In this document: piece by piece, positions 1,285 to 33,620 of the stretch
How positions within the stretch are numbered: position 1 is the first letter of the stretch
Layout: every line of letters starts with the position of its first letter
Source of the DNA: Alphaproteobacteria bacterium
GTDB lineage: Bacteria; Pseudomonadota; Alphaproteobacteria; Micropepsales; Micropepsaceae
Direction: 5' to 3'
Assembly: GCA_016792645.1 (NCBI GenBank)
Contig: JAEUMM010000052.1
Span: 1-42,996, forward strand
Length of the DNA: 42,996 nt
Made by a program: the position numbers and the translations under genes
The notes under the pieces: generated by a model
What the model was told of the DNA's origin: nothing
Databases searched by the model: none
What the model saw: only the letters and a program-made list of their open reading frames with translations

Positions 1285-3969
1285 ATGTCCGTCCGCAATC
1301 TGAACTCGTTCTTCGCCCCCAAGAGCGTCGCGCTGATCGGCGCCAGCCGTACGCCCTCGGCCGTCGGCGGCGTCGTCGCCCACAACCTCGTCGACGGCGG
1401 CTTCCCGGGCGAGATCATGTTCGTGAACCCGCACGCCGGCGAACTGTTGGGCCGCCAGGTCTTCGAGACGGTGGCCTCCCTCCCGCACGCGCCCGAACTC
1501 GCGATTATCGCGACCCCGCCAGCCCCCATCCCCGACCTCATCGCCGAACTCGGCGCCCGCGGCACCAAGGCGGTCGTAGTCCTGACCGCAGGCTTCGCTG
1601 AAATGGGCGAGGCCGGCCGCGCCGCCCAGCAACGCATGCTGGAACTGGCCCAGCCCAACGTCCTGCGTATCGTCGGCCCGAACTGCATCGGCGTCCTGTC
1701 GCCCGCGAACAAGCTGAACGCCAGTTTCGCCCACCGCATGCCGGTCGCCGGCAAGACCGCCTTCGTGACCCAATCGGGCGCGATGATGACGGCGGTCATC
1801 GACTGGGCGGTCGCTCGCGAAATCGGCTTCTCCCATCTCGTCTCGATGGGCGGCATGTGCGACGTCGACTTCGGCGACATGCTCGACTTCCTCGCCGCCG
1901 ACAACGCCACCACCGCCGTGCTGCTCTACGTCGAAAGCATCACCTACGCGCGCAAGTTCATGTCCGCCGCCCGCCGCTGCGCCCGCCTCAAACCGGTGAT
2001 CGTCGTCAAGGCCGGCCGCCACGAGGAAGGCGCGCGCGCCGCGCGCTCCCACACCGGCGCACTCGCCGGCTCCGACGCCGTCTACGACGCAGCCTTCCGC
2101 CGAGCGGGCCTCCTCCGTGTGCTGACGATCGACAGCCTCTTCGACGCACTAGAAGCGGTGGCCAGCGGCCCGCGCATGCTGGGCGATCGCGTCGCTATCG
2201 TCACGAACGGCGGCGGCGCAGGCGTGCTGGCCACCGACCACCTGATCGACGAAGGCGGTAAACTCGCGGCGCTATCGGCATCAACGATGGAAACGCTGAA
2301 CGCGGCGCTCCCCGCGAGTTGGAGCCACGCCAATCCCGTCGACATTATCGGGGACGCCGGCCCTGAGCGTTACCGTGCCGCCCTCGAAGCGCTCCTCGCC
2401 GACGACAATGCTGACGCCGTGCTGGTGCTGAACTGCCCCGTCGCCGTCGCGAACCCGACGGCCGCAGCAGACGCCGCAATCGCGGTCGTCGCTGCCGCCC
2501 GCGAAGCCGGCAACACCAAACCCGTGTTCGCCTCGTGGCTCGGCGATGCCGCGGCAGCCGAGGGACGCAAACATCTCGACGCGGCAGGCCTGCCCGTCTA
2601 CGCGACGCCCGAACGCGCCGTCACCGCCATGATGCAACTCGTTCGCCGCAGGCAGGCGCAAGAGCTGCTGATGCAGATCCCGCGCGCGGTGCAGGTCTCG
2701 GGCGAACGCGACGTAAAGCCGGCGCGCGAAGCGGTCGACGCAGCCCTCGCCACCGGCCGCCAATGGCTGACGGCGGTCGAAGCCAATACGGTGCTGCAAG
2801 CTTACGGCATCCCAACCGTCGAAATCCGCGTCGCCAAAACACCGGAAGAGGCGCATCGCACGGCGGTCGCCTTGGGCTTCCCCGTCGCGCTCAAAATCCT
2901 CTCCTCGGAAGTCATTCACAAGTCCGACGTCGGCGCGGTGATGCTGAACCTGAAGGACGGCCCGTCGGTCGCCCGCGCCGCTGCGACGATGCAGTTGCGC
3001 GTCGGCAAAATCCAACCGGACGCGCAGATCGACGGCTTCATGGTCCAGCCGATGGCGACCCGCCCCGGCGCGCACGAACTCATCGTTGGTATCTCCGAAG
3101 ACAAACTCTTTGGCCCGGTCATCCTCTTCGGCCAAGGCGGCACGTCCGTCGAAGTCGTCAACGACCGCGCGCTCGGCTTGCCGCCGCTGAACGCGCTGCT
3201 TGCGCGCGACCTCATCGACCGCACCCGTGTCGCTCGCCTTCTGAAGGGCTATCGCAATCGCCCGCCGTCCAATATGGATGCGATCGTGAAGGTGATCCTC
3301 GCGCTCCAGGACATCGCGATCGATCTGCCGGAGGTGAAGGAACTCGACATCAACCCGCTATGGGCCGACGATCAAGGCGTGCTGGCCCTCGACGCCCGCA
3401 TCCGCGTCGCCAAGGAAGATCGCCCCGGCACCGAACGCTTCGCCATAAAACCTTATCCGGCCGAACTCTCGCACGACATCGTCGACCGCAACGGCAAGCA
3501 CTACCTCTTGCGGCCGATCAGGCCCGAAGACGCCCCCGGCATCCAAGCCGCCATCGCCTCCAGCGACCCCGAAGACGTGCGCATGCGCTTCTTCTCAGGC
3601 CTGCGCCAACTCCCCGACGCGCTGGCAAAGCGCCTGACGCAAATCGACTACGATCGCGAGATGGCCTTCACGGTCGTCGAAACCGTCGACAATCGCGAGA
3701 CAGGCGTCGGCGTCGTGCGCCTGGCCCTCGACCCCGACCGCGCGCGCGGCGAATACGCGGTGATGGTGCGAAGCGATCGCATCGGCACGGGGCTGGGTCT
3801 GCGGATGATGGAAGAAATCATCGCCTACGCGCGCAGCATCGGCCTCAAGCAAGTCTTCGGCGATGTCCTTGCCGAAAACACGCGCATGCTCGACATGTGC
3901 GCCAAACTCGGCTTCAACCGCACCGGCTCGCCCGAGCCCGGCGTCGTCGAAGTGACGCTCAATCTCTGA
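1285..3969 (+). CDS. ADP-forming acyl-CoA synthetase-like / GNAT fusion (Pat-type protein acetyltransferase architecture)
   Basis: 894-aa ORF. N-terminal CoA-binding/succinyl-CoA-synthetase-like region (FAPKSVALIGASR, FVTQSGA), ATP-grasp-like middle, C-terminal GNAT (YLLRPIRPEDAPG..., RIGTGLGLRMMEEIIAYARSIGL). Length and domain order match Pat/PatZ-type lysine acetyltransferases. Confidence 0.85.
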   Translation: MSVRNLNSFFAPKSVALIGASRTPSAVGGVVAHNLVDGGFPGEIMFVNPHAGELLGRQVFETVASLPHAPELAIIATPPAPIPDLIAELGARGTKAVVVLTAGFAEMGEAGRAAQQRMLELAQPNVLRIVGPNCIGVLSPANKLNASFAHRMPVAGKTAFVTQSGAMMTAVIDWAVAREIGFSHLVSMGGMCDVDFGDMLDFLAADNATTAVLLYVESITYARKFMSAARRCARLKPVIVVKAGRHEEGARAARSHTGALAGSDAVYDAAFRRAGLLRVLTIDSLFDALEAVASGPRMLGDRVAIVTNGGGAGVLATDHLIDEGGKLAALSASTMETLNAALPASWSHANPVDIIGDAGPERYRAALEALLADDNADAVLVLNCPVAVANPTAAADAAIAVVAAAREAGNTKPVFASWLGDAAAAEGRKHLDAAGLPVYATPERAVTAMMQLVRRRQAQELLMQIPRAVQVSGERDVKPAREAVDAALATGRQWLTAVEANTVLQAYGIPTVEIRVAKTPEEAHRTAVALGFPVALKILSSEVIHKSDVGAVMLNLKDGPSVARAAATMQLRVGKIQPDAQIDGFMVQPMATRPGAHELIVGISEDKLFGPVILFGQGGTSVEVVNDRALGLPPLNALLARDLIDRTRVARLLKGYRNRPPSNMDAIVKVILALQDIAIDLPEVKELDINPLWADDQGVLALDARIRVAKEDRPGTERFAIKPYPAELSHDIVDRNGKHYLLRPIRPEDAPGIQAAIASSDPEDVRMRFFSGLRQLPDALAKRLTQIDYDREMAFTVVETVDNRETGVGVVRLALDPDRARGEYAVMVRSDRIGTGLGLRMMEEIIAYARSIGLKQVFGDVLAENTRMLDMCAKLGFNRTGSPEPGVVEVTLNL

Positions 3970-5177: not shown

Positions 5178-6839
5178 ATGTCCCAGCCCCCGTCTCCGCG
5201 CCTCCCAGGCCTCGGCACGCCGATGCAGCAACGCGGCGGCACGGCCGGCTGGAACTACCCGGTCAACCCGTTTGAGTTGCAGAAGCAGTTGGAACAGGGC
5301 ATCGAGCATCACAAGGCCGGCCGCGGCGAAGAAGCGGAGAGAGTATATCGCGCGGTTCTAGCCAAAGTGCCGAACCAGCCCGACGCTCTGAACCTCTTGG
5401 GTGTCCTCGCCATGGAAGCGGGCAGCCATGAGGCGGCATTCGATTTTCTCGAACGCGCCGTGGCCGCGCGCCCGAAGGATCCTGCGATCCTCAACAACTA
5501 CGGCAACGCGCTGTCGCTTGTGCGCCGCTATGAAGATGCGATCAAGCACCTCGAACGCGCGCTCGCGATCAAGCCCGACATGGCCGACGCGTGGCTCAAC
5601 CTCGGCCGCACGCTGAACTTGTCGGGGCAGGGCGAGCGTGCGTTGAAGTGCTTCGAACGCCTCGTAAAGCTGCGCCCCGACAGTCAAGCCGCGAAGTCCG
5701 GCATCAGCCGCGCTTACCTCAGCTTGGGCCGCACCAAGGACGCCGAAGACACCGCGCGCGACCTCATCGCAACGGCGCCGGGCACGTCCTCAGGGTACGT
5801 AAATCTCAGCAACGCCGTAAAGTTCAAGCCGGGCGCGCCGGAAATTGAGCAGGTCGAGGCGCTGATCGCCAGCAAGGAAACCAGTTCCAAGGAACTGCGC
5901 GGTCTTCAGTTTGCGGCGGCCAAAATGTACGACGACGTCGGCCGCTACGACGACGCTTTCCGCTATTTCGATCTCGCAAACAAATCGGCTGCCGGCAAGT
6001 ACGATCCCAAAGCCATTGAGACATCCTATGCCGAACTCAAGAAGACCTACACGCGGAAGTTCTTTGAAGAGCGTGCGAACACTGGCCTCGACAGCGAGCG
6101 TCCGGTCTTCATCGTCGGGATGCCACGCTCGGGGACCACGCTGACCGAAACGATCATCGGTGCGCATCCTCTGGCGCATGCTGCCGGCGAACTTGAAACG
6201 ATCAAACGCTGTGAACGCGAAATGGCGGACCTCGTCTTCCGCGACGAAGGTGTGCAGAAGAACGCGCGCACACTGTCGTGGGTCGGCGTCGAAGTGTTGG
6301 CGCAACGCTACCTCGATGCCATCGACGCCAAAACGCGCAATGCCGGCGCCAAGCGCATCACCGACAAGATGCCCCACAACTTTCAGGGCGTTGGCTTCAT
6401 CGCGATGCTGTTCCCCAACGCGCGCATTATCCACACCAAGCGCAGCCCCTTCGACACGTGCTTGTCGATCTGGCAGCAGAACTTCAACGATGCGCACTCC
6501 TACGCGCGCAACCTTGCCGACCTTGGCCACCATTACGCTCACTATCTGCACCTGATGCAGCATTGGCGCGAGGTGCTGCCCGGCCGCCTGCTTGAGATCG
6601 AATATGAAGACCTGGTCGAAAACCAGGAAGCGGTCTCGCGCAAGCTGATCGACTTCGTCGGTCTGCCCTGGGACGACGCGTGCCTGCGTCCGCAGGACGT
6701 CAAACGCACGGTTCTGACCGCCAGCGTCTGGCAGGTACGCCAACCCGTCTACAAGCGCTCGGCCGGCCGCTGGAAGAACTACGAGCAGCATCTAGGGCCA
6801 CTTCGCGATGCGCTCAAAGCGGCCGGAGCAGACGTCTAG
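5178..6839 (+). CDS. TPR-repeat / sulfotransferase-domain protein
   Basis: 553 aa. N-terminal half has TPR-like repeats (AERVYRAVLAKVPNQPDALNLLGVLA..., AIKHLERALAIKPDMADAWLNLG...). C-terminal half has the PAPS-binding 5'-PSB motif (VGMPRSGTTLTE) and sulfotransferase-like RSPFDTCLS. Alternative start at 5223. Confidence 0.8.
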   Translation: MSQPPSPRLPGLGTPMQQRGGTAGWNYPVNPFELQKQLEQGIEHHKAGRGEEAERVYRAVLAKVPNQPDALNLLGVLAMEAGSHEAAFDFLERAVAARPKDPAILNNYGNALSLVRRYEDAIKHLERALAIKPDMADAWLNLGRTLNLSGQGERALKCFERLVKLRPDSQAAKSGISRAYLSLGRTKDAEDTARDLIATAPGTSSGYVNLSNAVKFKPGAPEIEQVEALIASKETSSKELRGLQFAAAKMYDDVGRYDDAFRYFDLANKSAAGKYDPKAIETSYAELKKTYTRKFFEERANTGLDSERPVFIVGMPRSGTTLTETIIGAHPLAHAAGELETIKRCEREMADLVFRDEGVQKNARTLSWVGVEVLAQRYLDAIDAKTRNAGAKRITDKMPHNFQGVGFIAMLFPNARIIHTKRSPFDTCLSIWQQNFNDAHSYARNLADLGHHYAHYLHLMQHWREVLPGRLLEIEYEDLVENQEAVSRKLIDFVGLPWDDACLRPQDVKRTVLTASVWQVRQPVYKRSAGRWKNYEQHLGPLRDALKAAGADV

Positions 6840-20216: not shown

Positions 20217-21578
20217 TTGCGTATGTTTGAATCGGATCGTTTGGCCGAGATTTTCGGCCGCCTTGGAGAACCCGTCTTCCTGGCCCGCCATGCGGAACAG
20301 AATGGGCGTCACGAAATCACGCTGCACACAATGGATCGCAGAAGCGCCGCGCGCCTAGGCGTGCGCGTGCGCGATGCTCTGCGCCGGGAAGGTGCCGAGG
20401 CTACGTGCCGCGTCGTGGCTCACAATCCGCGCGCTTTGCGTCGCGTGCGCTCGCTTGAAGCGCTGGCCCGCCGCTTTGGCGATGGCCGCGTGGTCTACGA
20501 CCCGACCGGTTTTGTCGCGCGCAGTGAAGCTGTCACCGATTGCGCGCGCAAGCTTCGTGCGACGATTGGCGATGCAGTGCAGAGCATTCTCCTCGATACC
20601 GCGCGCCGCACCCTCTACGTCATCGTGCCGGAAACCGCCGTCGCCGATCGCGCCGACATTGTTCGCCGCGCCGGTGTCATGATGACCGAATGGCAGCAAA
20701 GCGTCGACCCGCGCTTCGCGCTCGCCGTCCGCATCGGCGTTGAGCCGCCGCGCGGATTGCGTTTGGTCAGCGTCGACGCGCACTCCACCGCGCAAACCAT
20801 TCGCCGCCAGCTCATTGAGCGCAAAGGCTGGGTCCGCGGCGCCATTGCCGTCGGCGCCGCAGCGCTCTTTGGCGCGGCCGTCGTGGTGCCCGCAGCGGCC
20901 GATCCGGCCGTTTCGAAGACGAACGGCTCCATCTTCGTGCGCGGTGGCGCTTACGACGAAACGGGCAGCGACAGCAACGGTGAAGGCGAAATCCTTGGCA
21001 AGGTGACGTTCCCAATCGGGCAAAGCTTCGGCGCGCAAGCCGAAGCGGCGGTCGGCACCGAAGAATACTACGGCTTCGGCGGCCACCTCTTCTGGCGTGA
21101 CCCCAGCTGGGCGATGGCCGGCGTGTTTGTCTCGTATGACGACACCAACGGCGTCGAGATGACCCGCTACGGCGGTGAAGTCGACGTCTACCTCGGCCAA
21201 TTCACGGCCGGTGGCCGCATCGGTCAGCAAGAAGGCGATGTCGGCGAAGGCACCTTCGGCAGCGTCGACGTCAGCTTCTATGCGACCCCGAACCTGGCCC
21301 TGCGCGCCGGCGTCGAATTCGAACCCGATGACGGCCGTGACGAAGTCGGCCGCGTCGGCTTCGAGTGGCAACCGGCGCTCGACTCGTCGCCCGGCCTCTC
21401 CGTCTTCGCCGACGGCGAATGGGGCGACGATTACGAACACATCCGCGCGGGTCTGAAGATCCACTTCGGCACCGACGGCATGAGCCTGATCGATCGCGAA
21501 CGCAAAGCCGACCCGACGACCGTGACCGGCAACCGCCGCCACGGCTACGGCGGCTACGGCTACACGCCGCCGTCCTAA
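20217..21578 (+). CDS. hypothetical protein: ~200-aa N-terminal domain + hydrophobic segment + OMP-like beta-barrel domain
   Basis: The C-terminal ~230 aa align by eye with the OMP at 7064..7939 (GFGGHLFWRDPSWAMAGVF / GFGANLHINWHDASEGTLGIF; FYATPNLALRAGVEF / YYATTRLKLSADLAY; AGLKIHFG / LGVRFHF). This supports the + strand over antisense ORF 20355..21587. The true start is uncertain. Confidence 0.6.
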   Translation: MRMFESDRLAEIFGRLGEPVFLARHAEQNGRHEITLHTMDRRSAARLGVRVRDALRREGAEATCRVVAHNPRALRRVRSLEALARRFGDGRVVYDPTGFVARSEAVTDCARKLRATIGDAVQSILLDTARRTLYVIVPETAVADRADIVRRAGVMMTEWQQSVDPRFALAVRIGVEPPRGLRLVSVDAHSTAQTIRRQLIERKGWVRGAIAVGAAALFGAAVVVPAAADPAVSKTNGSIFVRGGAYDETGSDSNGEGEILGKVTFPIGQSFGAQAEAAVGTEEYYGFGGHLFWRDPSWAMAGVFVSYDDTNGVEMTRYGGEVDVYLGQFTAGGRIGQQEGDVGEGTFGSVDVSFYATPNLALRAGVEFEPDDGRDEVGRVGFEWQPALDSSPGLSVFADGEWGDDYEHIRAGLKIHFGTDGMSLIDRERKADPTTVTGNRRHGYGGYGYTPPS

Positions 21579-21602
21579 CATCAACAATGGCAGTGAGGAC
21601 TC

Positions 21603-22868
21603 GTGAACCCATCAACGCCTGACCTCACTGCCAAATCGATTCTGTTCGCCTGGGAACTGGGCGCCAACCTCGGACATATCAAACCGATGTCGGCGCTCGC
21701 CCGGGCGCTTTCTTTGCGCGGCGCCCGCGCCACCTTCGCGGTGCGCGATCTGACCAACGTCCGTCAGATCGGCAAGCGCGGCGAATTCTCGATCCTTCAA
21801 GCCCCGGTCTGGCCCGATCACGAACACAAGGGCCACAATCCCGTCTTCGCAAGTTACGCCGACGTGCTCACCGGCATCGGCTTTGCCGACCCGAACAAGC
21901 TCGGCGCCGTCGTCGACGCATGGGAAGCCGTACTCGATCTCGTGAAGCCGGATATCGTCGTCGCTGATCACGCCCCCGCGTTGCAGGTGGCGTTGCTCGG
22001 CCGGCCGCAGCCGTTGGTCCTTGTCGGCACGCCGTTCACGATGCCGCCGCTCAACCTCGATCGCCTGCCGCCGATCCGCGCCGATCAAGCGCCGGCGCTC
22101 CCCGAGGCGCGCCTGCTGCAATCGGTGAAGTCGGTTCTCGCGTTGCGCGGTCGGCAAAGCCCCGCGCGCCTCGTCGATGTGCTGAAGGCCGACGAACGTC
22201 TGACCTTCGGGTTACCCGAACTCGATCCCTACCGCGCGTATCGGCAGGAACCGGTGCTCCTGCCGCCGGAACCGCTGCCCGCCTTCGTCGCACCGCCGCT
22301 CAAGCCGCGCCTCTTCGTCTACGCCGGTGCCGAAGTCCCGCACCTCGAAAAGATTATCCAGGTCCTGGTTACGATGGACATCGACGTCGTCGCCTATCTG
22401 CGCGGCGATGTCGGGCCGCTGCCGCATTTCTTGAAGCACCGCGGTCACGAAGTTTTCGACACACCGCCGCCGCTCAACGAAATCCTGCCGCGCGTGTCGC
22501 ATGTTCTGTCGCAAGGCGGTGCATTTACCTGCCAAGCGGCGCTCGCCGCCGGACGTCCGCATCTTATCATGCCGCTGCACAACGAGACGGAACTCAACCT
22601 CATGAACTCCGGCGCGCTCGGCGTGGCGCGCCGGATGGATCCGCCGAAAAATGAAAAAGAAGAAAAGGCCATGATCAAGAAGATCGACGCCTTCCTCACC
22701 GACGCACAGATGATGCAAAACGCACGGCAATGGGCGATGACGCTGCAGACGCGCCAGCAACCCGATGGGTTGGGTGCGGCGGTCGCCGCCGTGGAACGCT
22801 GTTTGACGCGCGATCAGATGCGCAGTTCGCGCCTGCGCTCCGCCGCCGCCGCCGCGCAGCCGTCGTAG
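21603..22868 (+). CDS. GT-B glycosyltransferase, GT1/MGT (UDP-glycosyltransferase/MurG-like) type
   Basis: 421 aa. N-terminal ILFAWELGANLGHIKPMSALARAL and C-terminal HVLSQGGAFTCQAALAAGRPHLIMPL resemble the UDP-glycosyltransferase nucleotide-sugar signature. Begins 24 nt after the previous gene. Confidence 0.7.
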   Translation: MNPSTPDLTAKSILFAWELGANLGHIKPMSALARALSLRGARATFAVRDLTNVRQIGKRGEFSILQAPVWPDHEHKGHNPVFASYADVLTGIGFADPNKLGAVVDAWEAVLDLVKPDIVVADHAPALQVALLGRPQPLVLVGTPFTMPPLNLDRLPPIRADQAPALPEARLLQSVKSVLALRGRQSPARLVDVLKADERLTFGLPELDPYRAYRQEPVLLPPEPLPAFVAPPLKPRLFVYAGAEVPHLEKIIQVLVTMDIDVVAYLRGDVGPLPHFLKHRGHEVFDTPPPLNEILPRVSHVLSQGGAFTCQAALAAGRPHLIMPLHNETELNLMNSGALGVARRMDPPKNEKEEKAMIKKIDAFLTDAQMMQNARQWAMTLQTRQQPDGLGAAVAAVERCLTRDQMRSSRLRSAAAAAQPS

Positions 22869-23785
22869 AAGGCGGCCATCACCAAACTCGCCGCGCCCGC
22901 CGACAGCCACCGCATCGGCGTCCAGCTCGAAAACCCTTTGGACATCTCCAGGTGATCCTTCATCAGGCTCACTGTATGCACCGGCAGCCACCAGCGCCGC
23001 GCCGTCATCATGCGCGCGTTATGCAGCGGCGCCGTCGTCACGCGGCACATCCACGCATTCGCATAGCCATAGCGCCAATAACGCCGCATCTGCGTGCGCA
23101 GGCCGTCCGACACGTCATGGCGCACATACCAATTGAAGTCGACGACGGTGCGCGAGCCGGCCGAAGCCAACCGGCACGCAAGCTCCGTGTCCTCGCCCGC
23201 GCCCGGGAAGTCCGGACCGAACCCAAACCCGCCCAGCTTCTCGAAGAGCGTGCGCCGAATGGCGACATTCGCCGTCACGAACAGCGGCGCGTCGGGCTGC
23301 GGCACAGGTTGCGGGATGAGCTCATAATGACCGTTCACGCGCTCGAAGAACCGCGGCCGTTTGGGCATGTTCGGCAACGTCGTCCCAACCACGACGTCGA
23401 GTTCCGGATTCGCGTCCAGCCGCGCCTCCAGCCAATCCAGCCAGAACGGCGGCGGCACGCAGTCGTCGTCCGTGTAGACGATGTAGTCGCCGCGCGCACG
23501 CGCCGCACACTCATTGCGCGCCCGTGCGATACCCACGTTCTGCGGCAACGGATGGTACGAAACGATGTCCGCGAACCGCGCCACGGCCTCCGCATAACGC
23601 GCATCGTGACTGCCGTCGTTGATGGCGACCAGTTCTCGCCCGCGATGACCCTCAATCTGAGGTCGCAAGCTCTCGAGAAGTCGCGCAAGTCCTTGGGGAC
23701 GGCGAAACGTCGAAACCGCAACCGAAATCCGTGGGGTGTCGGACAAGCGTGATCCTGTCAGAATCGCAAGCAACGCACACAGCAT
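22814..23785 (-). CDS. GT-A glycosyltransferase family 2
   Basis: ISVAVSTFRRPQGLARLLESL..., LVAINDGSHD, YIVYTDDDCVPPP. Alternative TTG start at 23746 (MSDTPRISVAV). 3' end overlaps the convergent GT1-like gene by 55 nt. Confidence 0.85.
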   Translation of the reverse strand: MLCALLAILTGSRLSDTPRISVAVSTFRRPQGLARLLESLRPQIEGHRGRELVAINDGSHDARYAEAVARFADIVSYHPLPQNVGIARARNECAARARGDYIVYTDDDCVPPPFWLDWLEARLDANPELDVVVGTTLPNMPKRPRFFERVNGHYELIPQPVPQPDAPLFVTANVAIRRTLFEKLGGFGFGPDFPGAGEDTELACRLASAGSRTVVDFNWYVRHDVSDGLRTQMRRYWRYGYANAWMCRVTTAPLHNARMMTARRWWLPVHTVSLMKDHLEMSKGFSSWTPMRWLSAGAASLVMAAFYDGCAAAAAERRRELRI

Positions 23786-23915
23786 AGGCCCGATCGGAAC
23801 TTACGGCATGCGTGCCGCGCGGTTCGTCCACGGCTTTTCGCGCGCCAGGTCTTTGCCCGCGGGCGATCAACGCTCCATTCTGAACCGCGATTCGCAAATC
23901 CACTCGGACCGGGCA

Positions 23916-24899
23916 ATGCCATACGACAGCGATCACGCCGGAACAGTGATCTCCGCCGATCCGCTCGTCATCTATGCGATGCACGCACCCGGCCGGCCGC
24001 TCGGTATCGCGCCGGCACATGCCGCTGCGCTGCGTGGCCGCAAAGCGCTGCTCCTGCTGGCCCTCGACGCGACGATCGAAGTTGAGGGTGCCGCCGGCGA
24101 ACTCGCGCGCGATCTGAAATCCGCACAAGCCGATCTCCCGGACGTCAACGTTGTCGTCCTGGCCAACACGCCATTCGAAGCCTACCTGCTCGCCGATCTA
24201 AGGATCTCCGCGATGCCGGGAAGCAGATCGATCTTCGTCGACGAAAGCGTCTTCAAGCCCTGGGACGGGCCGGCTGAGTTTGATGCCGTCTATAACGCCA
24301 GCCTCACGCCCGCGAACCGGCACGAACTCGCGCGCGACGTGACGCGCCTCGCGCTCATCTACGACCGCGACCGCTCGAACGATCCGAACCGGTTGGATGA
24401 GTTGAAAGCAAAACTGCCGCGCGCAACCTTCGTCAATCACGCCGAGGGGCAGGGGGCTTACCGCCATCTGTCACCGGAAGAATGCGACCGTCACATCAAT
24501 CGCGCGCGTGTCGGCCTCTGCCTTTCGCGGACCGGCGCGACGGTCGCCGCCATGGAGTACATGCTCGCGGGCCTACCGATCGTCTCGACGCCCAGCCGCG
24601 GCGGACGCGAACGCTATTTGCTGCCGCCCTTCTGCCGCCTCGTCGACGACAATCCCCCCGCCGTCGCGGACGCCGTCGACGTCTTCGTGCGCAAGCCTGT
24701 CCCTAAAGCTGTGATCCGCAATCACGCGCTGCATATGCTGCAGTTCGAGCGCACCAATTTTCTGATCGCGATCAACAATCTCGCGAAAGAGTTTTTCGGC
24801 GTCGAGACGCTGTTCGCCTCGTTCGCGCCGTTTCAAATAGGACTGATCAGTCCGCGCGACCCCCTTCCAATGCAGGCACCGGAGAAGGCCGCGTCATGA
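23916..24899 (+). CDS. GT-B/EX7E-like paralogue 1 (subtype A, degenerate motif)
   Basis: Start moved to MPYDSDHAGTVISADP (23916) by alignment with the four paralogues. Shares LANTPFEAYLL, PPFCRLV and FERTNFLIAINNLAKEFFGV with copy 3. The shared motif reads LSRTGATVAAMEY (first Glu lost). Confidence 0.75.
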   Translation: MPYDSDHAGTVISADPLVIYAMHAPGRPLGIAPAHAAALRGRKALLLLALDATIEVEGAAGELARDLKSAQADLPDVNVVVLANTPFEAYLLADLRISAMPGSRSIFVDESVFKPWDGPAEFDAVYNASLTPANRHELARDVTRLALIYDRDRSNDPNRLDELKAKLPRATFVNHAEGQGAYRHLSPEECDRHINRARVGLCLSRTGATVAAMEYMLAGLPIVSTPSRGGRERYLLPPFCRLVDDNPPAVADAVDVFVRKPVPKAVIRNHALHMLQFERTNFLIAINNLAKEFFGVETLFASFAPFQIGLISPRDPLPMQAPEKAAS

Positions 24900-25894
24900 G
24901 GCTCGACGTCCCGTTGGCCAAACGGCGCGCTGCAGGCGCAATCGTCAGCACCGACCCGTTGATCACCATCGGCAAGCACGAGGACGGTCTGCCGATGGGC
25001 CTCGCGTCGCTTTTCCCCGAACGTTTCGAGAGCAAGCCGTCGCTTCATTTCATGGGCCTCGACTGGACCGCGGAACCGCCCGACGAGGTCGCGTTGATCG
25101 CCGAAGAACTCGCAGACGCGCGCCGCCGTCTCCCCCTGGCCCGCTTCGTCTTCAACGTCAACACGCACTACGAGGCGGCATTGTTTTCGCGCGCCGGAAT
25201 ACCGAACATTGTCGCGAATGGAATGTCGTTCGTCGACGAGCGGACGTTCGTGCCGCCGCCCGCACCGTTCGCAGAGCGCCGCTACGACGCCGTCTACACG
25301 GCCCGCCTCGATCCCTTCAAACGCCACGAACTCGCCGCAAAAATTCCGACCCTGATGCTCGTCTACGGCACGCCCGAGGAAGGCGAGTTGGAGCACGTGA
25401 AGAGCATCCTCCCGCATGCGTACTACGCCAACCACGATGTAGAACCCGGCCGCTATCAGCACATCCATCACAGCAAGATGAGCGCATTGCTCAATCAGTG
25501 CAGCGTAGGGCTTTGCCTCTCGGCCGAAGAGGGCGCGATGCGCAGCGCGATGGAATACCTGCTGTGCGGTCTGCCCGTCGTATCGACGGAAAGCGTCGGC
25601 GGCCGGGACCGCTATTTCATCGGCCCGCACACGCGCGTCGTCCCGCCCGACCCCGACGCCGTCGCGAGCGCCGTGGCGGACCTCAAGGCGCGCGCCTTCC
25701 ACCCTATCGCGGTACGCGAATACGTCAGCCGCCTGGTCGCGTTTGACCGCCACAACTTTCTCACCAGCGCCAACAAGATCATCGAGCGCGAACTGGGCGT
25801 GCGCGATCGCTTCCGGTCGTTCGCGCCCTTCGCAGGCGCCGCGGTGCGCTGGCGCCTCGTTTCCGAAATCGAAGAGGAGTTCGACCGCCGTTGA
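24896..25894 (+). CDS. GT-B/EX7E-like paralogue 2 (subtype B)
   Basis: ATGA overlap with copy 1. VGLCLSAEEGAMRSAMEYLLCGLPVVSTESVGGRDRYF, SRAGIPNIVAN, YDAVYTARLDPFKRHELA, AVREYVSRLVAFDRHNFL. Confidence 0.8.
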   Translation: MRLDVPLAKRRAAGAIVSTDPLITIGKHEDGLPMGLASLFPERFESKPSLHFMGLDWTAEPPDEVALIAEELADARRRLPLARFVFNVNTHYEAALFSRAGIPNIVANGMSFVDERTFVPPPAPFAERRYDAVYTARLDPFKRHELAAKIPTLMLVYGTPEEGELEHVKSILPHAYYANHDVEPGRYQHIHHSKMSALLNQCSVGLCLSAEEGAMRSAMEYLLCGLPVVSTESVGGRDRYFIGPHTRVVPPDPDAVASAVADLKARAFHPIAVREYVSRLVAFDRHNFLTSANKIIERELGVRDRFRSFAPFAGAAVRWRLVSEIEEEFDRR

Positions 25895-26886
25895 GCGAGG
25901 CGCTGAACACGGACCCCTATGTCGGCGGACTGGTCGTCTCGGCCGACCCGGTCATAACCTATTCGAAGCGCAGCACCGATGCGCCCCTGGGTCTCGCAAG
26001 CGCGTGCCCCGAAGCTTTCCGCGGACGAAAGGCGCTGCATCTCATCGGCCTTTCCTACACGATTGAGCCGCGCCGACTCTTTGCCGAGCTCGCCGCGCAC
26101 CTCAAGGCTCTCGCGCCCGAACTGCCCGACAGCCGCTTCGCCGTCTTGGCCAACAGCGAGTTCGAAGCCTATCTGCTGTCGACGATGGGCGTCCCCTCGA
26201 TGCTGTCGAGCCAAGCGGTCTTCATCGACGACAACATCTTCCGCCCGCAGGAGGCGGAGCCGCGCTTCGACGCCATGTACAACGCTCGTCTCCTGCCGAT
26301 GAAACGTCACGAGCTAGCGCGCGACGTGAAGAGCTTGGGCCTTCTCTACGATATCGGTGCGGCGGAAGAGCCGCCGCAATACGACCATGTAAAGGCGCTC
26401 TTGCCTCACGCGACCTTCGTCAATCACGAGGTCGGCGGCGGAACGTACCGTCAGCTTAAGGTCGAGGAATGCGCCGCGCAGCTTAACACGGCGCGTGTAG
26501 GCCTCTGCTTGTCGGCCGAAGAGGGTCTAATGCAGGCCGCACTCGAATATCTCTTGTGCGGGCTGCCGGTCGTCTCGACGCGCAGCATCGGCGGTCGCGA
26601 CCGCTACTTCATGCCGCCGTTCTGCCGCGTCGTCCCCGACGATGCGGCAGCGATCGCCGACGCCGTCGCCACGCTGGCCGGCGCGCGTATCCGTAAGGCC
26701 GCGGTGCGCGGCTACATCATGCATCTACTCAAGTTCGAGCGGCACAATTTCCTCATCGCCGTGAATCGTCTGGCCAAAGAGACGTTCGGCGTCGACGATC
26801 TCTTCACCTCCTTCGCGCCGTTCGAACGCGGCCTCACGCGTTGGCGCAAGCTTGACGATGCCCTCGCGCCGCTGGCGGCCGCATGA
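25891..26886 (+). CDS. GT-B/EX7E-like paralogue 3 (subtype A)
   Basis: TTG start in a TTGA overlap with copy 2. VGLCLSAEEGLMQAALEYLLCGLPVVSTRSIGGRDRYF, LANSEFEAYLL, PPFCRVV, FERHNFLIAVNRLAKETFGV. Confidence 0.8.
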   Translation: MSEALNTDPYVGGLVVSADPVITYSKRSTDAPLGLASACPEAFRGRKALHLIGLSYTIEPRRLFAELAAHLKALAPELPDSRFAVLANSEFEAYLLSTMGVPSMLSSQAVFIDDNIFRPQEAEPRFDAMYNARLLPMKRHELARDVKSLGLLYDIGAAEEPPQYDHVKALLPHATFVNHEVGGGTYRQLKVEECAAQLNTARVGLCLSAEEGLMQAALEYLLCGLPVVSTRSIGGRDRYFMPPFCRVVPDDAAAIADAVATLAGARIRKAAVRGYIMHLLKFERHNFLIAVNRLAKETFGVDDLFTSFAPFERGLTRWRKLDDALAPLAAA

Positions 26887-27890
26887 GCGCTTTTGCCGGA
26901 CCCAAGCCCGGCATCGCGGCCGGCTGCGTGGTCAGCGCATCGCCGCTCGTCACCGTCTCGAAGCGTGAAGCGCCGCTCCCGCTGGGGCTCGCTTCACTCG
27001 CGCCGGAGCGCTTCGCCGACCAACCGTCGCTGAACTTCATCGGCCTCACGTGGTCCCACGAAACGACAGAACTCGTCGAGAAAGTCGCACGTGACTTTGC
27101 CGAAGCTGAGCGGGTGCTGTCCAAGGCGCGCTTCGTGATGCTGGCGAACACGCCGACAGAACAGGTTCAGTTTTCGCGCGCGGGCGTTCCGAACATCCTC
27201 GCCAACGAACTCATCTTCGTCGACGAGCGAGCGTTCGTTCCGCCGCCGCCGGGCGCCAAGCGCCGCCGCCGCTTCGACGCGGTTTACACCGCGCGCCTAC
27301 GAGAACTGAAACGCCACGACCTCGCGAAAGGCGTCGATAATCTGCTGCTCGTCTACGCCGATCCCGAACCCGCCGATTTCGCGCGCGTAAAGTTGGAACT
27401 GCCGAATGCGGTCTTTGCCAATCACGACCTCGGACAAGGCGTGTACCGACACATCGACCAGAAAACGCTACGCGACCTGCTCGGCGCATGCGGCGTAGGA
27501 CTCTGCCTGTCGCCGGTCGAAGGGGCGATGCGCGCATCGATCGAATACAGACTGTGCGGCATGCCGGTCGTGTCCATCCGCAGCGCCGGCGGACGCGATC
27601 GCTACTTGCTCGGTCCCCATGTCCGCGTCGTGGACGCCGACCCGGACGCAATCGCAAGCGCGGTGCGAGACCTCAACGCAACCGTCTTCGACCCCCTCGC
27701 GGTACGCGAGTTTGCGGGCAGCCTCATCGCGTTCGACCGGCACAACTTCCTCGGCGCCGTGAACAAGTTGGTGGAGCACGTATTCGGCGTCCATCACGCC
27801 TTCACGTCCTTCCGCCCCTTCGCTCGTTTCCCGGTGTCATGGCGGCAGCCGGCGGAGATCTTCGCGCCGCTCGACGCGAGGGCCGCATGA
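26883..27890 (+). CDS. GT-B/EX7E-like paralogue 4 (subtype B)
   Basis: ATGA overlap. VGLCLSPVEGAMRASIEYRLCGMPVVSIRSAGGRDRYL, SRAGVPNILAN, FDAVYTARLRELKRHDLA, AVREFAGSLIAFDRHNFL. Confidence 0.8.
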   Translation: MSAFAGPKPGIAAGCVVSASPLVTVSKREAPLPLGLASLAPERFADQPSLNFIGLTWSHETTELVEKVARDFAEAERVLSKARFVMLANTPTEQVQFSRAGVPNILANELIFVDERAFVPPPPGAKRRRRFDAVYTARLRELKRHDLAKGVDNLLLVYADPEPADFARVKLELPNAVFANHDLGQGVYRHIDQKTLRDLLGACGVGLCLSPVEGAMRASIEYRLCGMPVVSIRSAGGRDRYLLGPHVRVVDADPDAIASAVRDLNATVFDPLAVREFAGSLIAFDRHNFLGAVNKLVEHVFGVHHAFTSFRPFARFPVSWRQPAEIFAPLDARAA

Positions 27891-28885
27891 GCGCGGGTGC
27901 CGACCTTGCTGCCGGCTGCATCGCAAGCCTCGATCCGCTGATCACGATGACAAAGCGCGAGCCGCATTTGCCGATGGGGCTCGCGCCGTCGCGGCCGGAC
28001 CTCTTTGCCGACAAGCCCGGGCTTCACCTCGTCGGTCTCACCTGGACGTGCGAATCAGATTGGCTGACGCGCGAGATCGCGGCCGACTTCGCGCGCGCGG
28101 CGGCGACCCTCCCGCGCGCCACGATCGTCGTCGTTGCCAACACGCAGATGGAGTCGTTCTATCTCTCGCGCGCCGGCATCCCGAACCTGTTCGCGAACGA
28201 GCTCATTTTCACCGACGAACGCCTGTTCACAGTCGTGCCGCGACAGCCGCAGGATCTCGCGCGCTTCGACGCCATTTACGTCGCCCGCCTCGAACCTGAA
28301 AAGCGCCACGAACTCGCGGCCGCGATTCCAAGCCTCGTGCTGACCCACGGGCGACCGCCGCCAGGCGGCGAAGCGCGCGTGCGCCGCACGCTGCCTAAGG
28401 CCCGCTTCGCGAACTTCGAGGGCACGGGCGGAACTTACCGCTACCTCGAAGACGCCGAACTCGTGAGCCTGATGAACCGATCCGCCGTCGGCCTCTGCCT
28501 CTCGGCGATCGAAGGATCGATGCGGGTGTCGATGGAGTACCGCCTCGCCGGCACGCCGGTCGTCTCGACGCGCAGCGTCGGCGGCCGCGACCGCTACTTC
28601 ATGGGCCCCCACATCCGCGTCGTCGACGACGACGCGGATGCCGTCGCCGCCGCCGTGCGCGAGCTGAAGGCGCAACGCTTCGACCGGCAGGCGGTACGTG
28701 AATACGTCGGCCAGCTCGTCGCCTTCGACCGTCAGAGCTTCCTGCTCAACCTGAACAAGCTGATCGAATGGCACCTCGGCGTCCGCGACCGCTTTCGCAC
28801 ATTCGCGCCGTTTATGTCACATCCGGTGGCCTGGCGCAGCGCCGCGCAAATCCTGGCGCCTCTCGCCGCCGCTTCAGCGGGCTGA
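27887..28885 (+). CDS. GT-B/EX7E-like paralogue 5 (subtype B)
   Basis: ATGA overlap. Internal start of ORF 27488..28885 chosen by paralogue alignment (MSAGADLAAGCIASLDPLIT). VGLCLSAIEGSMRVSMEYRLAGTPVVSTRSVGGRDRYF, SRAGIPNLFAN, FDAIYVARLEPEKRHELA. Confidence 0.8.
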   Translation: MSAGADLAAGCIASLDPLITMTKREPHLPMGLAPSRPDLFADKPGLHLVGLTWTCESDWLTREIAADFARAAATLPRATIVVVANTQMESFYLSRAGIPNLFANELIFTDERLFTVVPRQPQDLARFDAIYVARLEPEKRHELAAAIPSLVLTHGRPPPGGEARVRRTLPKARFANFEGTGGTYRYLEDAELVSLMNRSAVGLCLSAIEGSMRVSMEYRLAGTPVVSTRSVGGRDRYFMGPHIRVVDDDADAVAAAVRELKAQRFDRQAVREYVGQLVAFDRQSFLLNLNKLIEWHLGVRDRFRTFAPFMSHPVAWRSAAQILAPLAAASAG

Positions 28886-29893
28886 CAAGTGCTCGTCGGG
28901 CGTGGCGAGGTTCATCAAGAACTGCCGCGTGCAGGCTTCCCAGGAAAAGTTCATGGCGAACAAGCGGCACGCTTGTGGACTGAGCCGCTGCGCGCGCAGC
29001 GCTGCTTGCTGCAAATCCTCGCTCAGCGCGCCCACGGCCGCATTGTCGCCAATGATGTCGATCGGACCTTGCACCGGGTGCGCGGCAACGGGAAGGCCGC
29101 TCGCCAACGCTTCAAGTACGACAAGGCCGAACGTGTCGGTGCGCGAGGGAAACACGAACACGTCGCTCGCGCCGTAGTACCGTGCCAGATCGGCGCCGAA
29201 CTTCGGTCCTGCGAAATGCACGTGCGGATAGCGTGCGCGCAATTCCCCCAGCTGCGGCCCGTCGCCCACCACCAGCTTCGATCCCGGCAGATCCAGCTTC
29301 AAGAATTCCTCGACGCTCTTCTCGATCGCGACGCGCCCCACGTAGAGGAACACCGGCCGCGGTAAATCGAGCCAATCCTTCGCGCCCGGCTTGAACAAAT
29401 CCGTGTCCACGCCGCGCGACCACAGCCGAAGGTTCTTGAAGCCCCGCGTCGTGAGATCGCGCTCGAGTGTTCGCGTCGCCACCATCACCGCGGTCGCCGG
29501 TCCGTGAAACCAGCGCAAGCCCGCGTAAGACCACGCTGTCGGCACACCGAAGCGGGCCTGGATATATTCGGGAAAGCGCGTGTGGAACGACGTTGTGAAC
29601 GAGATCCCGCGCCGCATGCAGTTGCGCCGTGTCGCCAAACCCAGCGGACCTTCTGTCGCGATGTGAATGGCGTCAGGCTTGAACTGATCGATCACCCGTC
29701 CGACCGCACGCCGCGCAAATAACGCAAGCTTGATCTCGGGATAGGTTGGCATCGGCACGGTGCGAAAACCGTCCGGCGTCACGAACTTCACGTCGTGTCC
29801 CAGGCGAACGAGTTGCCTACCCAAGGTCTCGAGCGTGCGCACCACGCCGTTGACCTGCGGCGCCCACGCGTCGGTTGCGATTAAGACCCGCAT
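28874..29893 (-). CDS. GT4 glycosyltransferase (Agt-like glycolipid glycosyltransferase candidate)
   Basis: MRVLIATDAWAPQVNGVVRTLETL..., ...VFVFPSRTDTFGLVVLEALASGLPVAA. Directly downstream of the PlcP-like gene. An ATG at 29992 would give a 33-codon longer form. Confidence 0.85.
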   Translation of the reverse strand: MRVLIATDAWAPQVNGVVRTLETLGRQLVRLGHDVKFVTPDGFRTVPMPTYPEIKLALFARRAVGRVIDQFKPDAIHIATEGPLGLATRRNCMRRGISFTTSFHTRFPEYIQARFGVPTAWSYAGLRWFHGPATAVMVATRTLERDLTTRGFKNLRLWSRGVDTDLFKPGAKDWLDLPRPVFLYVGRVAIEKSVEEFLKLDLPGSKLVVGDGPQLGELRARYPHVHFAGPKFGADLARYYGASDVFVFPSRTDTFGLVVLEALASGLPVAAHPVQGPIDIIGDNAAVGALSEDLQQAALRAQRLSPQACRLFAMNFSWEACTRQFLMNLATPDEHLSAR

Positions 29894-29993
29894 CGGGCGC
29901 CGCCAACGCGGGAATGAAAGCGTCTCATCTGCCTCTTGCAGGCGCTCGTCGACGGGACGCGCCGCCGCCCGCGGCATCGTGCGCGGGGCCATC

Positions 29994-30878
29994 CTACTCG
30001 GCCGCCTGCGGCAGCAAGGCCTGCGGCTGGTGCGTGGGAAGTGCTTGAGTCCACGTCACAATTTGCAGCTTTCCAGCAAAGTCTTCAACCAGCGCCGTAC
30101 AACTCTCGACCCAGTCGCCGTCGTTGCAGTAGAGGATGGAGCCGATCTGCCGCATCTCGGCCTTGTGGATATGGCCGCAAACGACGCCATGCACCTGGCG
30201 CCGCTCCGCTTCAAGCGCCACCGCCTGCTCAAAGCGCCCGATATACTCGACCGCGTTCTTGACGTGATCTTTGAGCCAGCGCGATAGCGACCAATACGGC
30301 ATTCCAAGACGCCGTCGCGTCGCCGCCACGACATCGTTGAGCCGGAGCGCCAGCGCATAGGCCCAATCGCCGGCCAGCGCCAGCCAGCGCGCATATGTCA
30401 CGATCCCGTCGAAATGGTCGCCATGCAGCACCAAGAGCCGGCGCCCGTCAGCCGTCTGATGAATGGCGTCGCCGGCAAGCTCGATGCCCGCAAAGCAAAG
30501 CCCTGCGTAGTCGCGAAACGCCTCATCATGATTGCCGGGAATGTAAATGACGCGCGTGCCCGCTTGCGCTTTGCGCAGGATCTCGTCGATCACCGCGTTG
30601 TGGCTCTTGTGCCAAAACCACGATCGGCTGAGGCGCCAGCCGTCGACGATATCGCCGACGAGATAGAGCATGTCGCAGTCGTTATGGAGGAGGAAGTTCA
30701 GGAGCAACTCGGCCTTGCACCCGCGCGTGCCCAAATGCGTGTCCGAGATCCAGATTGTACGATGCCGCCGAGGCGGTTGTGCCCACGGCCGCGGTGACGG
30801 CGTTCCGCCGGTTTGCTTCCACCGCTCGAAGAATGCGCCCGCATCAGCGATGCGGCCTAATGCGCCCACGCCCGACAT
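29994..30878 (-). CDS. calcineurin-like metallophosphoesterase of the LpxH/PlcP branch (phospholipase C PlcP candidate)
   Basis: IWISDTHLG, YLVGDIVDGW, IPGNHDE, VLHGDHFD, CGHIH. The ORF is open to a TTG at 30956; the ATG at 30878 (MSGVGAL) is preferred. Confidence 0.8.
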   Translation of the reverse strand: MSGVGALGRIADAGAFFERWKQTGGTPSPRPWAQPPRRHRTIWISDTHLGTRGCKAELLLNFLLHNDCDMLYLVGDIVDGWRLSRSWFWHKSHNAVIDEILRKAQAGTRVIYIPGNHDEAFRDYAGLCFAGIELAGDAIHQTADGRRLLVLHGDHFDGIVTYARWLALAGDWAYALALRLNDVVAATRRRLGMPYWSLSRWLKDHVKNAVEYIGRFEQAVALEAERRQVHGVVCGHIHKAEMRQIGSILYCNDGDWVESCTALVEDFAGKLQIVTWTQALPTHQPQALLPQAAE

Positions 30879-31017
30879 TTTGGACCCCCGAAACACGTCA
30901 CGGCGCCGCGCCGCGAATCTGCCGTTTTCCACAGCCACCGGGGTGCCAACAGGCAATGAAACTTTGATGTCGAGGCGATGATTTATTTATGGAAGCCGCC
31001 AACCGTCAAAGCATCGG

Positions 31018-31036
31018 CAAGTAATTTACCAAGTAA
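31018..31036. repeat. direct repeat CAAGTAA-N5-CAAGTAA (12-bp period) upstream of the PlcP-like gene
   Basis: Read directly: 31018-31024 and 31030-31036. This geometry fits a winged-helix response-regulator site, but the sequence is not a canonical Pho box. Confidence 0.3.
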
Positions 31037-31264
31037 AGCCGAGCACCTGCGGAAACCTCACGCAGGGATTCCATCGAGTTCTGCCCCGCCCGCCGCAGCG
31101 AGGGTGCGACCTTCCGCGAACGTAACTTCGGCAGTGCAACAAAACGTGAGAGCAACACTTTCAGGCCATTTAGCCCAGCGCAGCCAAGCGCCGCCCGAAT
31201 CGAAACGCTAGGGAAATCAACAAGATGCGTGCGGGCTGCTGTCCAGGCGCTGAACGTTTAACAC

Positions 31265-31298: not shown

Positions 31299-31394
31299 AG
31301 CGCAGTAAGGCTTTTGGCTTTGCTCCGCAGCCCTTCCTGGGCGTTTCCTCCCTTAACTTGGGCCGCTTGGCACCCGCCTCGCGGTCCTTTTTTT
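31299..31394 (+). ncRNA. candidate ~95-nt trans-acting sRNA with exposed CCUCCC (anti-SD) motif
   Basis: Bounded by the promoter-like hexamers and an intrinsic terminator. Small hairpins AAGGC-UUUUG-GCUUU and GCCC-UUCCU-GGGC. CCUCCC at 31347-31352 lies in the linker before the terminator stem. The region has no convincing ORF. Confidence 0.45.
31360..31394 (+). terminator. Rho-independent terminator
   Basis: GGGCCGC (31360-31366) pairs with GCGGTCC (31381-31387, one G-U pair). It is followed by seven T (31388-31394). Confidence 0.7.
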
Positions 31395-31403
31395 ATCTGC
31401 AGG

Positions 31404-33545: not shown

Positions 33546-33620
<75 letters not shown>

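Follow-up and report, generated by a model that had tools for sequence, protein, structure and literature searches.

Five tandem paralogs, predicted to be GT4-like glycosyltransferases and including one with degenerate donor-binding residues, in a variable locus of a Micropepsaceae bacterium

Why a bacterium should keep five consecutive, mutually alignable genes that overlap one another at every junction is the question raised by a locus on contig JAEUMM010000052.1 (assembly GCA_016792645.1) of a member of the Micropepsaceae. The whole stretch of DNA analyzed, hereafter the window, comprises 42,996 nucleotides, and the host is a soil or freshwater alphaproteobacterium. The five open reading frames (ORFs), designated c1 to c5, lie on the plus strand at 23916-28885 and encode 327-335 amino acids (aa) each, according to an ORF listing and direct translation. 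Their products are almost certainly GT4-like glycosyltransferases of the GT-B fold. Overall, the array is best explained by stepwise sugar addition by c2 to c5 with c1 as an accessory or altered paralog, a reading to which we assign a probability of about 0.6.

The junctions from c1 to c5 consist of 4-nt overlaps, in the order ATGA, TTGA, ATGA, and ATGA. An earlier reading of the letters of this DNA (the initial annotation) had described five same-strand, mutually alignable genes with three ATGA overlaps and one TTGA overlap, and this description was confirmed by ORF calls and BLASTP. Longer ORFs enclose both c1 and c5, including a GTG ORF from 23736 in the case of c1. Genes called independently on metagenomic contigs nearly identical to the window encode the same five products (327, 333, 331, 335, and 332 aa), and the start of c1 at 23916 was preferred over the GTG ORF because these calls also yielded a 327-aa c1. 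The copies were alignable from the first residues onward, and all pairs matched each other with BLASTP E values of 1e-50 to 1e-122. Amino acid sequence identity was 50% between c1 and c3, 52-54% among c2, c4, and c5, and 35-45% between these two groups, in agreement with the proposed division into subtype A (c1 and c3) and subtype B (c2, c4, and c5); the A clade also received a bootstrap value of 100% in the phylogenetic tree. The sequence motifs proposed for the subtypes were essentially correct, except that FDAxYxARLxxxKRHxLA was also present in c3 and so is not specific to subtype B, and that c5 carries L in place of F in the subtype B motif LxFxGL.

The DNA identity between pairs of copies was 49-63%, and the longest exact word in common was 22 nt; therefore, a recent duplication, amplification, or gene conversion of c1 to c5 was ruled out. 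Judged from their sequences, the five proteins are old, diverged paralogs of a compact GT4-type subfamily. No transmembrane segment was found in any glycosyltransferase of the locus, and c1 to c5 are best explained as predicted soluble, cytoplasmic products of one translationally coupled operon. A scan of positions 20000-31200 for promoter and terminator consensus sequences gave counts at or below the shuffle expectation.

To assign the fold, an AlphaFold2 model was built for c2 only, on an alignment of 60 sequences; c2 shares 35-54% identity with the remaining copies. The model (pLDDT 95, pTM 0.92) has the GT-B fold, with two Rossmann-like domains and an active-site cleft between them. In a Foldseek search of this model against the PDB, the 50 best matches were GT-B enzymes, almost all of them belonging to GT4 (E 6e-9 to 1e-6, TM score of ~0.45-0.53, 13-18% identity), and the alignments of 256-427 columns covered both domains. 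The top matches included BGluT (9v0l, E 6e-9), MMP mannosyltransferase (7qsg), SdgB, HepE, LmbT, BshA, MshA, SenB, and TarM; GlgM and GtfA were also among the fold matches. Because the model matches GT4 enzymes across both domains, the N-terminal half, which was not recognized in the initial annotation, is modeled as the acceptor domain of the GT-B fold, an N-terminal Rossmann domain of reduced length. Neither the profile search nor the structure search pointed to a non-glycosyltransferase fold.

Pfam Glyco_trans_1_4 (PF13692) and Glycos_transf_1 (PF00534) matched only residues ~185-265, approximately 75 residues per copy. The scores exceeded the gathering thresholds for c2 (Glyco_trans_1_4, 33.6 vs 27; second match, 26.9 vs 26.4) and c3 (28.9 vs 27). 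An NCBIfam scan of c1 to c5 gave only sub-threshold matches to generic GT4 models. The Pfam matches and the fold matches of the c2 model bear out the earlier recognition of the EX7E region of GT4-type GT-B enzymes in the C-terminal block. Both E212-x7-E220 and R137-x4-K142 (ARLxPxKRH; c2 numbering) were present in c2 to c5 and nearly invariant across the 60 homologs. Of the two glutamates of EX7E in GT4 enzymes, the first makes contact with the donor sugar and the second with the ribose, and the nucleotide sugar is also contacted by the Arg/Lys pair; Arg406/Lys411 of TviE have the same R-x4-K spacing as R137/K142 of c2 (PMC8760489). The proteins c2 to c5 are presumably retaining, NDP-sugar-dependent enzymes. 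A role as anti-phage defense glycosyltransferases was considered and dropped: PADLOC defense models had no match among c1 to c5 or the three co-conserved neighbors described below, and matches to the Pfam GT4-conflict family were sub-threshold (E 1e-4 to 0.03).

The motif VGLCLSxxEGx..., which was initially taken to be common to all five proteins, is not intact in c1, which reads LSRTGATVAAMEY, so that the count of five glycosyltransferases with the catalytic motif did not hold for this copy. In c1 (...YNASLTPANRH... and ...LSRT-GATVAAMEY...), S stands in place of R137 and N in place of K142, and a 1-aa deletion accompanies the loss of the first Glu of EX7E. A dedicated search recovered a c1 clade (P0281-P0288, 62-99% identical) in which the first Glu was absent in every member, with Gly, Asp, or Asn at this site and the spacing shortened alike, and K142 was replaced by Asn in most members. 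The next relatives outside this clade, including P0289 and P0092, kept the canonical residues. There were no precomputed Pfam matches among the proteins of the c1 clade. Because three donor-binding residues are gone and yet the gene is under purifying selection (the ratio of non-synonymous to synonymous substitution rates, dN/dS, was ~0.17 at dS 0.7-0.9), c1 is probably a maintained non-catalytic or mechanistically altered paralog, and the array probably comprises four enzymes and one such paralog. In P0156, a natural fusion of two domains of this family, EX7E of the second domain is also degenerate, with a deletion at the same site as in c1.

The number of family copies per locus ranged from one to five across genomes: one in most lineages, two in L003, L005, L006, and L014, three in L001, L002, and L025, four in L018, and five in the window (L numbers denote homologous loci, P numbers homologous proteins). 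In a neighbor-joining distance tree of c1 to c5 and homologs with bootstrap, the A clade contained c3, the first genes of L002, L003, and L005, and a c1 sub-clade (98%) consisting of c1 and the first gene of L001; c3 was grouped with L005_8793, L002_8991, and L003_7454 at 100%. Within B, a B-mid clade (89%) included c2, which paired with L001_9977 (100%), and c4, which was placed near L002_9929; other bootstrap values inside B were weak (2-53%). A B-last group, also with weak bootstrap, held c5 and the final gene of every array; the identity of c5 to this gene was 65-72% in arrays L001-L005. The array of the window thus has the pattern A'-Bmid-A-Bmid-Blast. As for the co-occurrence of the two subtypes, every Micropepsaceae-type array contained at least one A gene and the conserved B-last gene.

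The same five-gene order with an NTGA overlap at each junction was found in L036-L043, which are contigs from several metagenomes with 99.5% identity to the window, and in two more distant lineages, L046-L048 and L049-L050; at least two further lineages at the species level thus share the five-gene array. The dN/dS values were ~0.17 for c1, 0.05-0.07 for c2, 0.07-0.10 for c3, 0.15-0.18 for c4, and 0.09-0.13 for c5. With separate orthologs of each copy in other genomes and dN/dS of 0.05-0.18, the earlier view that the array is maintained, and not a recent amplification, was upheld.

In comparison with L046 and L049, dS was ~0.6-0.8 for both the array and its flanks, and the array orthologs were 75-94% identical. 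In comparison with L001 (three copies) and L005 (two copies), the common array genes were only 55-70% identical (dN 0.22-0.35, dS 1.0-1.4), while the flanks remained 89-97% identical at the amino acid level, and flank dS was ~0.55-0.9 against L001, L005, L046, and L049 alike. Because the flanks are equally close while the array genes are strongly diverged in L001 and L005, the locus is read from these comparisons as a set of alternative two-, three-, or five-gene haplotypes in equally related genomes, as is typical of loci for variable glycans. Uniformly hypervariable genes or fast drift were rejected as an explanation, given the 75-94% identity of orthologs among the five-copy genomes. Among the 99.5%-identical strains, the array (5 kb) held 46 of 97 differences, compared with ~23 expected; these included 30 synonymous and 13 non-synonymous differences and one 3-nt indel. 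In the comparison with L036, 19 of the 97 differences fell in c2 (14 synonymous, 2 non-synonymous, and a 3-nt indel at 25251), and this cluster may be a recombination tract.

Taking the observed fold, motifs, homology, orthology, selection, and synteny together, we infer a sequential action in which c2 to c5 would be active, non-redundant enzymes that extend an oligosaccharide or glycoconjugate in a set order, each by one sugar. Specificity would be set mainly by the N-terminal (acceptor) domains, because these have diverged (30-37% identity between A and B, 49-55% within B) while the donor domains are 50-58% identical across c2 to c5. The number and type of copies would determine the glycan made, as the presence of two-, three-, or five-gene haplotypes in equally related genomes suggests. 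In this scheme, c1 would act as a non-catalytic or altered partner and not as a standard transferase. The conserved 4-nt overlaps would fit co-translation of the proteins in fixed proportions.

Several observations weigh against this reading. The Pfam scores of c1 (21.4), c4 (18.8), and c5 (23.8) were below gathering, and neither a sequence search of the PDB with c2 nor a profile search with the 60 sequences returned a significant match; because only c2 and c3 pass the Pfam thresholds and the PDB profile search was negative, the family assignment rests mainly on the predicted structure and the motifs. The need for the first Glu varies among GT4 enzymes (PMC8760489), and c1 could therefore keep some activity. 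Since most other lineages have a single copy, acting in several steps is not an inherent property of the family. Many GT4 enzymes with small cytoplasmic acceptors are among the nearest structural matches. Further, a scan of 30 neighboring ORFs in the 43-kb window turned up neither a priming phosphoglycosyl transferase nor a flippase, polymerase, or ABC exporter, and an exported surface glycan is therefore only a putative product.

Upstream of the array (Table 1), the genes for a 453-aa barrel protein, a GT1-like protein, and a GT2-family glycosyltransferase accompany the family copies in L001-L003 and L005-L009, and the trio is kept together even in L006-L009 (Rhizomicrobium, Aestuariivirga, and a metagenome-assembled genome of Hyphomicrobiales). 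Identity to L001 and L005 was 82% for the GT1-like protein and 76% for the GT2 protein, compared with 90-93% among the five-copy genomes; GT2 thus diverges along with the array between haplotypes (76% vs 92-93%). The 453-aa protein is 94% conserved between haplotypes. In an AlphaFold2 model of this protein (pLDDT 81), a conserved N-terminal alpha/beta domain that has no signal peptide is followed by a hydrophobic, signal-like stretch that is disordered (residues 204-228, ending AAA/DP) and then by a 12-stranded beta-barrel. The best Foldseek match of the barrel was KdgM (TM score of 0.77), followed by NanC and the invasin/intimin beta-domain. KdgM and NanC are oligosaccharide channels, and invasin and intimin have inverse-autotransporter barrels. 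In the distant homologs P0143-P0145, the N-terminal domain was absent from the alignment, and the aligned part began near the hydrophobic segment. Internal cleavage is a possibility that could explain how one modeled chain holds both a cytoplasmic part and a barrel of the outer membrane. Taken together, the region is best explained as a conserved, putative glycan-assembly locus that encodes an outer-membrane barrel protein, a GT1-like protein, a GT2 protein, and between one and five family members, with the operon of these family genes as its variable core. The GT2 protein of the locus carries an extra N-terminal domain of ~290 aa in Rhizomicrobium and Aestuariivirga (L007:3704-5581, L008:5478-7247, and L009:7207-9003), for which no significant Pfam match was obtained (weak match to Rhamno_transf, E 0.19).

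Table 1. Features of the window, in order of position.
Feature	Coordinates	Strand	Remarks
894-aa protein	1285..3969	+	NDP-forming acyl-CoA synthetase with C-terminal GNAT, Pat-type acetyltransferase-like
TPR and sulfotransferase protein	5178..6839	+	Sulfotransfer_3 E 1e-45; 17 kb upstream of the array
Uncharacterized 453-aa protein	20217..21578	+	no Pfam family; 25 homologs
GT1-like (MGT/EryCIII-like) GT-B	21603..22868	+	weak matches: TIGR04516 E 2.5e-8, MGT E 5e-7, EryCIII-like_C E 6e-4
GT2-family glycosyltransferase	22814..23785	-	Pfam Glycos_transf_2 E 1e-22; divergent from c1
c1, subtype A'	23916..24899	+	327 aa, ATG start; GT4-like GT-B paralog, degenerate donor-binding residues
c2, subtype B	24896..25894	+	332 aa, ATG start; GT4-like; E212, E220, and R137-x4-K142 intact
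c3, subtype A	25891..26886	+	331 aa, TTG start; GT4-like; catalytic motifs intact
c4, subtype B	26883..27890	+	335 aa, ATG start; GT4-like; catalytic motifs intact
c5, subtype B-last	27887..28885	+	332 aa, ATG start; GT4-like; ortholog ends every related array
Canonical GT4 (Agt-like, glycolipid-synthase-like)	28874..29992	-	Pfam Glyco_transf_4 and Glycos_transf_1
LpxH-like metallophosphoesterase	29994..30956	-	Pfam Metallophos, weak LpxH match; directly upstream of the GT4 gene
suhB/mmgR small RNA	31323..31401	+	Rfam match, 53 bits vs gathering 41; intergenic
tRNA-Val (GAC)	33546..33620	+	sole tRNA of the window

Downstream, the array converges with a canonical GT4 gene, whose best NCBIfam similarities were GlcN-PG synthase and MGlcDAG synthase, and with the gene for an LpxH-like metallophosphoesterase. 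The 3' ends of c5 and the GT4 gene overlap by 12 nt, and an overlap is kept in L001, L002, L004, L005, L046, and L049 but not in L003. The GT4 and metallophosphoesterase genes resemble the plcP-agt arrangement of lipid remodeling under phosphate stress, in which plcP lies upstream of glycosyltransferases making di- and tri-glycosyl diacylglycerol (DAG) (PMC4796936): in both, a metallophosphoesterase gene is located directly upstream of a GT4 gene on one strand. The likeness is one of gene arrangement, and the pair differs in that no Pho box was found above chance. A search for CTGTCAT-N4-CTGTCAT with up to three mismatches gave two matches against 1.3 expected, neither of them in a relevant intergenic region. 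In all close relatives (L001-L005 and L036-L050), the PlcP-Agt-like pair lies directly next to the array, and the adjacency is lost in L006-L009. The two genes are 90-94% conserved across haplotypes and do not co-vary with the array. Their link to the five paralogs is positional only, and they are probably a separate unit outside the pathway of the array.

Other features of the window lie apart from these genes. The sulfotransferase of Table 1 has TPR repeats, and family members fused to a TPR-sulfotransferase (P0235) or to a Stf0 sulfotransferase (in L009) occur elsewhere; a Rosetta-stone link between the window protein and P0235 was rejected, since the similarity was weak and at the level of the TPR only (E 5e-6). 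The small RNA match lies just upstream of the end of a GNAT gene, no sign of an integrated element was found beside the tRNA gene, and the 894-aa protein is unrelated to the array.

The family is small and specific: at E<=1e-30, it comprises 892 clusters out of 1.84 billion representatives. Reference genomes yielded 35 loci, all of them alphaproteobacterial, and most of these genomes were metagenome-assembled. Fusions of the family domain to GT2, Stf0- or TPR-sulfotransferases, methyltransferases, DUF6492, or a second family domain were found, the last in P0146, P0156, and P0216. On a Gemmobacter plasmid, relatives occur within a Wzx/DegT/FdtA/GT2/GT61 cluster, and a distant one adjoins an O-antigen translocase gene. 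In Agrobacterium and Rhodobacterales, relatives occur in clusters with condensation-domain, AMP-binding, and carrier proteins similar to non-ribosomal peptide synthetases (NRPS). From these fusions and varied clusters, the family appears to be a general building block of glycoconjugate pathways. The family gene lies beside an NRPS-like protein in L014, L016, L017, L019, L022, and L032 (Rhodobacterales) and in L018 and L029; this protein has condensation, AMP-binding, and PP-binding domains and is ~1500 aa where full length. Also encoded there are GT2 and GT32-like proteins (620-1120 aa) along with several conserved proteins that lack annotation, and this association suggests an amino-acyl or lipid-decorated glycoconjugate. 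A literature search on DUF6492 and on glycosyltransferases of Micropepsaceae found no papers.

As to the location of the product, the barrel protein and the haplotype pattern favor the envelope, and the missing export genes and the matches to small-acceptor enzymes favor the cytoplasm. A cytoplasmic product in place of a surface glycan is a tentative possibility; it would be a glycoside of a small molecule or an oligosaccharide that is soluble or serves for storage or as a compatible solute. Such a product is consistent with top Foldseek matches to compact GT4 enzymes acting on small or soluble acceptors (BGluT, BshA, MshA, SenB, GlgM, and the mycobacterial methylmannose polysaccharide system serving as models), with the lack of transmembrane segments in all glycosyltransferases of the locus, with a window devoid of flippase, exporter, and priming transferase genes, and with the methyltransferase and sulfotransferase fusions, which are typical of decorated oligosaccharides. 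However, it is weakened by the co-conserved 12-stranded outer-membrane barrel resembling the KdgM and NanC channels, the haplotype-like replacement of glycosyltransferases as is typical at surface-antigen loci, and the Gemmobacter relative adjoining an O-antigen translocase gene. The main rival to stepwise addition, an obligate A/B hetero-oligomer including the degenerate c1, in which some subunits would bind or present the acceptor and others catalyze, appears unlikely. It would fit the presence of at least one A gene and the last B gene in every Micropepsaceae-type array, the NTGA overlaps conserved at all junctions, which favor equimolar co-translation, and the conservation of a c1 clade without the first Glu. 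The two-domain single chains (P0146, P0156, and P0216), with the degenerate second EX7E of P0156, and the precedent of GtfA/GtfB (PMC6973325) also point in this direction. On the other hand, the single copy in most lineages indicates that the family can work without a distinct partner, c3 and its A-type orthologs retain all catalytic residues, the fused domains of P0146 appear closely alike by eye, unlike an A/B pair, and no DUF1975-type interaction domain was detected.

Under a more elaborate proposal, the locus would be a serotype-like modular glycan determinant in which alternating A and B proteins of a compact GT4 subfamily not described before form a physical assembly line, the conserved EX7E-less c1 type presents the acceptor, and the product is passed to the unusual fusion protein, whose cytoplasmic part would be joined by the signal-like segment to the KdgM-like barrel. 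This would amount to a new route for building and exporting surface oligosaccharides without Wzx/Wzy, ABC, or synthase systems; we regard this as improbable. It is very doubtful that the array elongates mono- to oligo-glycosyl DAG made by the adjacent PlcP-Agt-like operon in lipid remodeling. Although the pair has the plcP-agt arrangement and abuts the array in L001-L005 and L036-L050, usually with overlapping 3' ends, and although plcP is known upstream of di- and tri-glycosyl DAG glycosyltransferases (PMC4796936), L006-L009 keep the module of barrel, GT1-like, GT2, and family genes without the pair. Moreover, the two units are convergent and not co-transcribed, the pair keeps 90-94% conservation between haplotypes in which the array has been exchanged, and Pho boxes were not found above chance. 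Redundant dosage amplification or decaying duplicates, to which the loss of donor-binding residues in c1 and its dN/dS at the high end among the five might point, are effectively refuted: the copies are only 35-54% identical, each has separate orthologs in other genomes, the ORFs are intact in at least three species-level lineages, and dN/dS is 0.05-0.18 for all copies, c1 included. Stepwise addition by c2 to c5, with c1 as an accessory or altered paralog, is thus retained as the best explanation overall.

Among known systems, the compact members of CAZy GT4, such as BGluT (9v0l/5zer), BshA (3mbo/6n1x), MshA (3c4q), SenB (8jjn), and MMP mannosyltransferase (7qsg), are the closest by fold. They have in common with the array proteins the two-Rossmann GT-B fold, EX7E in the C-terminal domain with R-x4-K ahead of it, and a soluble chain of ~320-360 aa. 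The array proteins differ from them in being 13-18% identical to any solved structure, at TM scores of ~0.45-0.53, and in a shortened N-terminal domain that is invisible to Pfam; two of the five copies pass gathering.

A further comparison is with the polymannose O-antigens O8 and O9a of Escherichia coli, which are made by the GT4 enzymes WbdC, WbdB, and WbdA, the last with two GT4 domains. The genes of these paralogous enzymes are adjacent, the enzymes work one after another, and the locus is strain-variable. Adjacent paralogous GT4 genes, two-domain chains (here P0146, P0156, and P0216), and locus variability are likewise found in the present family. However, the window lacks an ABC transporter, a chain terminator, and an undecaprenyl-phosphate priming enzyme, and the array proteins form a separate small subfamily of ~892 clusters. 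The window also differs from Wzx/Wzy- or ABC-dependent O-antigen and capsule loci, as it contains neither a priming transferase with flippase and polymerase nor an ABC exporter.

For c1, the nearest parallel is the two-protein O-GlcNAc transferase of Gram-positive serine-rich repeat protein (SRRP) glycosylation, in which GtfA is catalytic and GtfB acts as a chaperone (PDB 4pqg; PMC6973325). DUF1975 mediates the GtfA-GtfB and substrate interactions (PMC6973325). In that system, a catalytic GT4-like GT-B protein stands next to a non-catalytic paralog; in the array, the probable counterpart of the latter would be c1, whose donor residues are gone and whose gene is translationally coupled to c2. 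GtfA was also among the fold matches of c2. In contrast, DUF1975 had no match in c1 to c5 at E<=1, the array has no SRRP substrate or accessory Sec system, and the sequence match of GtfA to c2 was non-significant (E 0.44).

Tandem GT4 paralogs in variable glycan loci are common, and the array is an uncharacterized addition to this familiar class that leaves the current understanding of glycan biosynthesis unchanged. What sets it apart is the c1 clade without the first Glu, the series of two-, three-, and five-gene haplotypes, and the co-conserved barrel fusion protein. If the reading given here is right, the locus would define an uncharacterized, mostly alphaproteobacterial subfamily of compact GT4-like proteins with ~900 clusters, almost all of them metagenomic, and the natural series of one, two, three, and five genes could relate glycosyltransferase content to glycan structure. 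On the same condition, the c1 clade would be a candidate bacterial pseudo-glycosyltransferase, and the barrel protein conserved along with the array might hint at an unrecognized export route.

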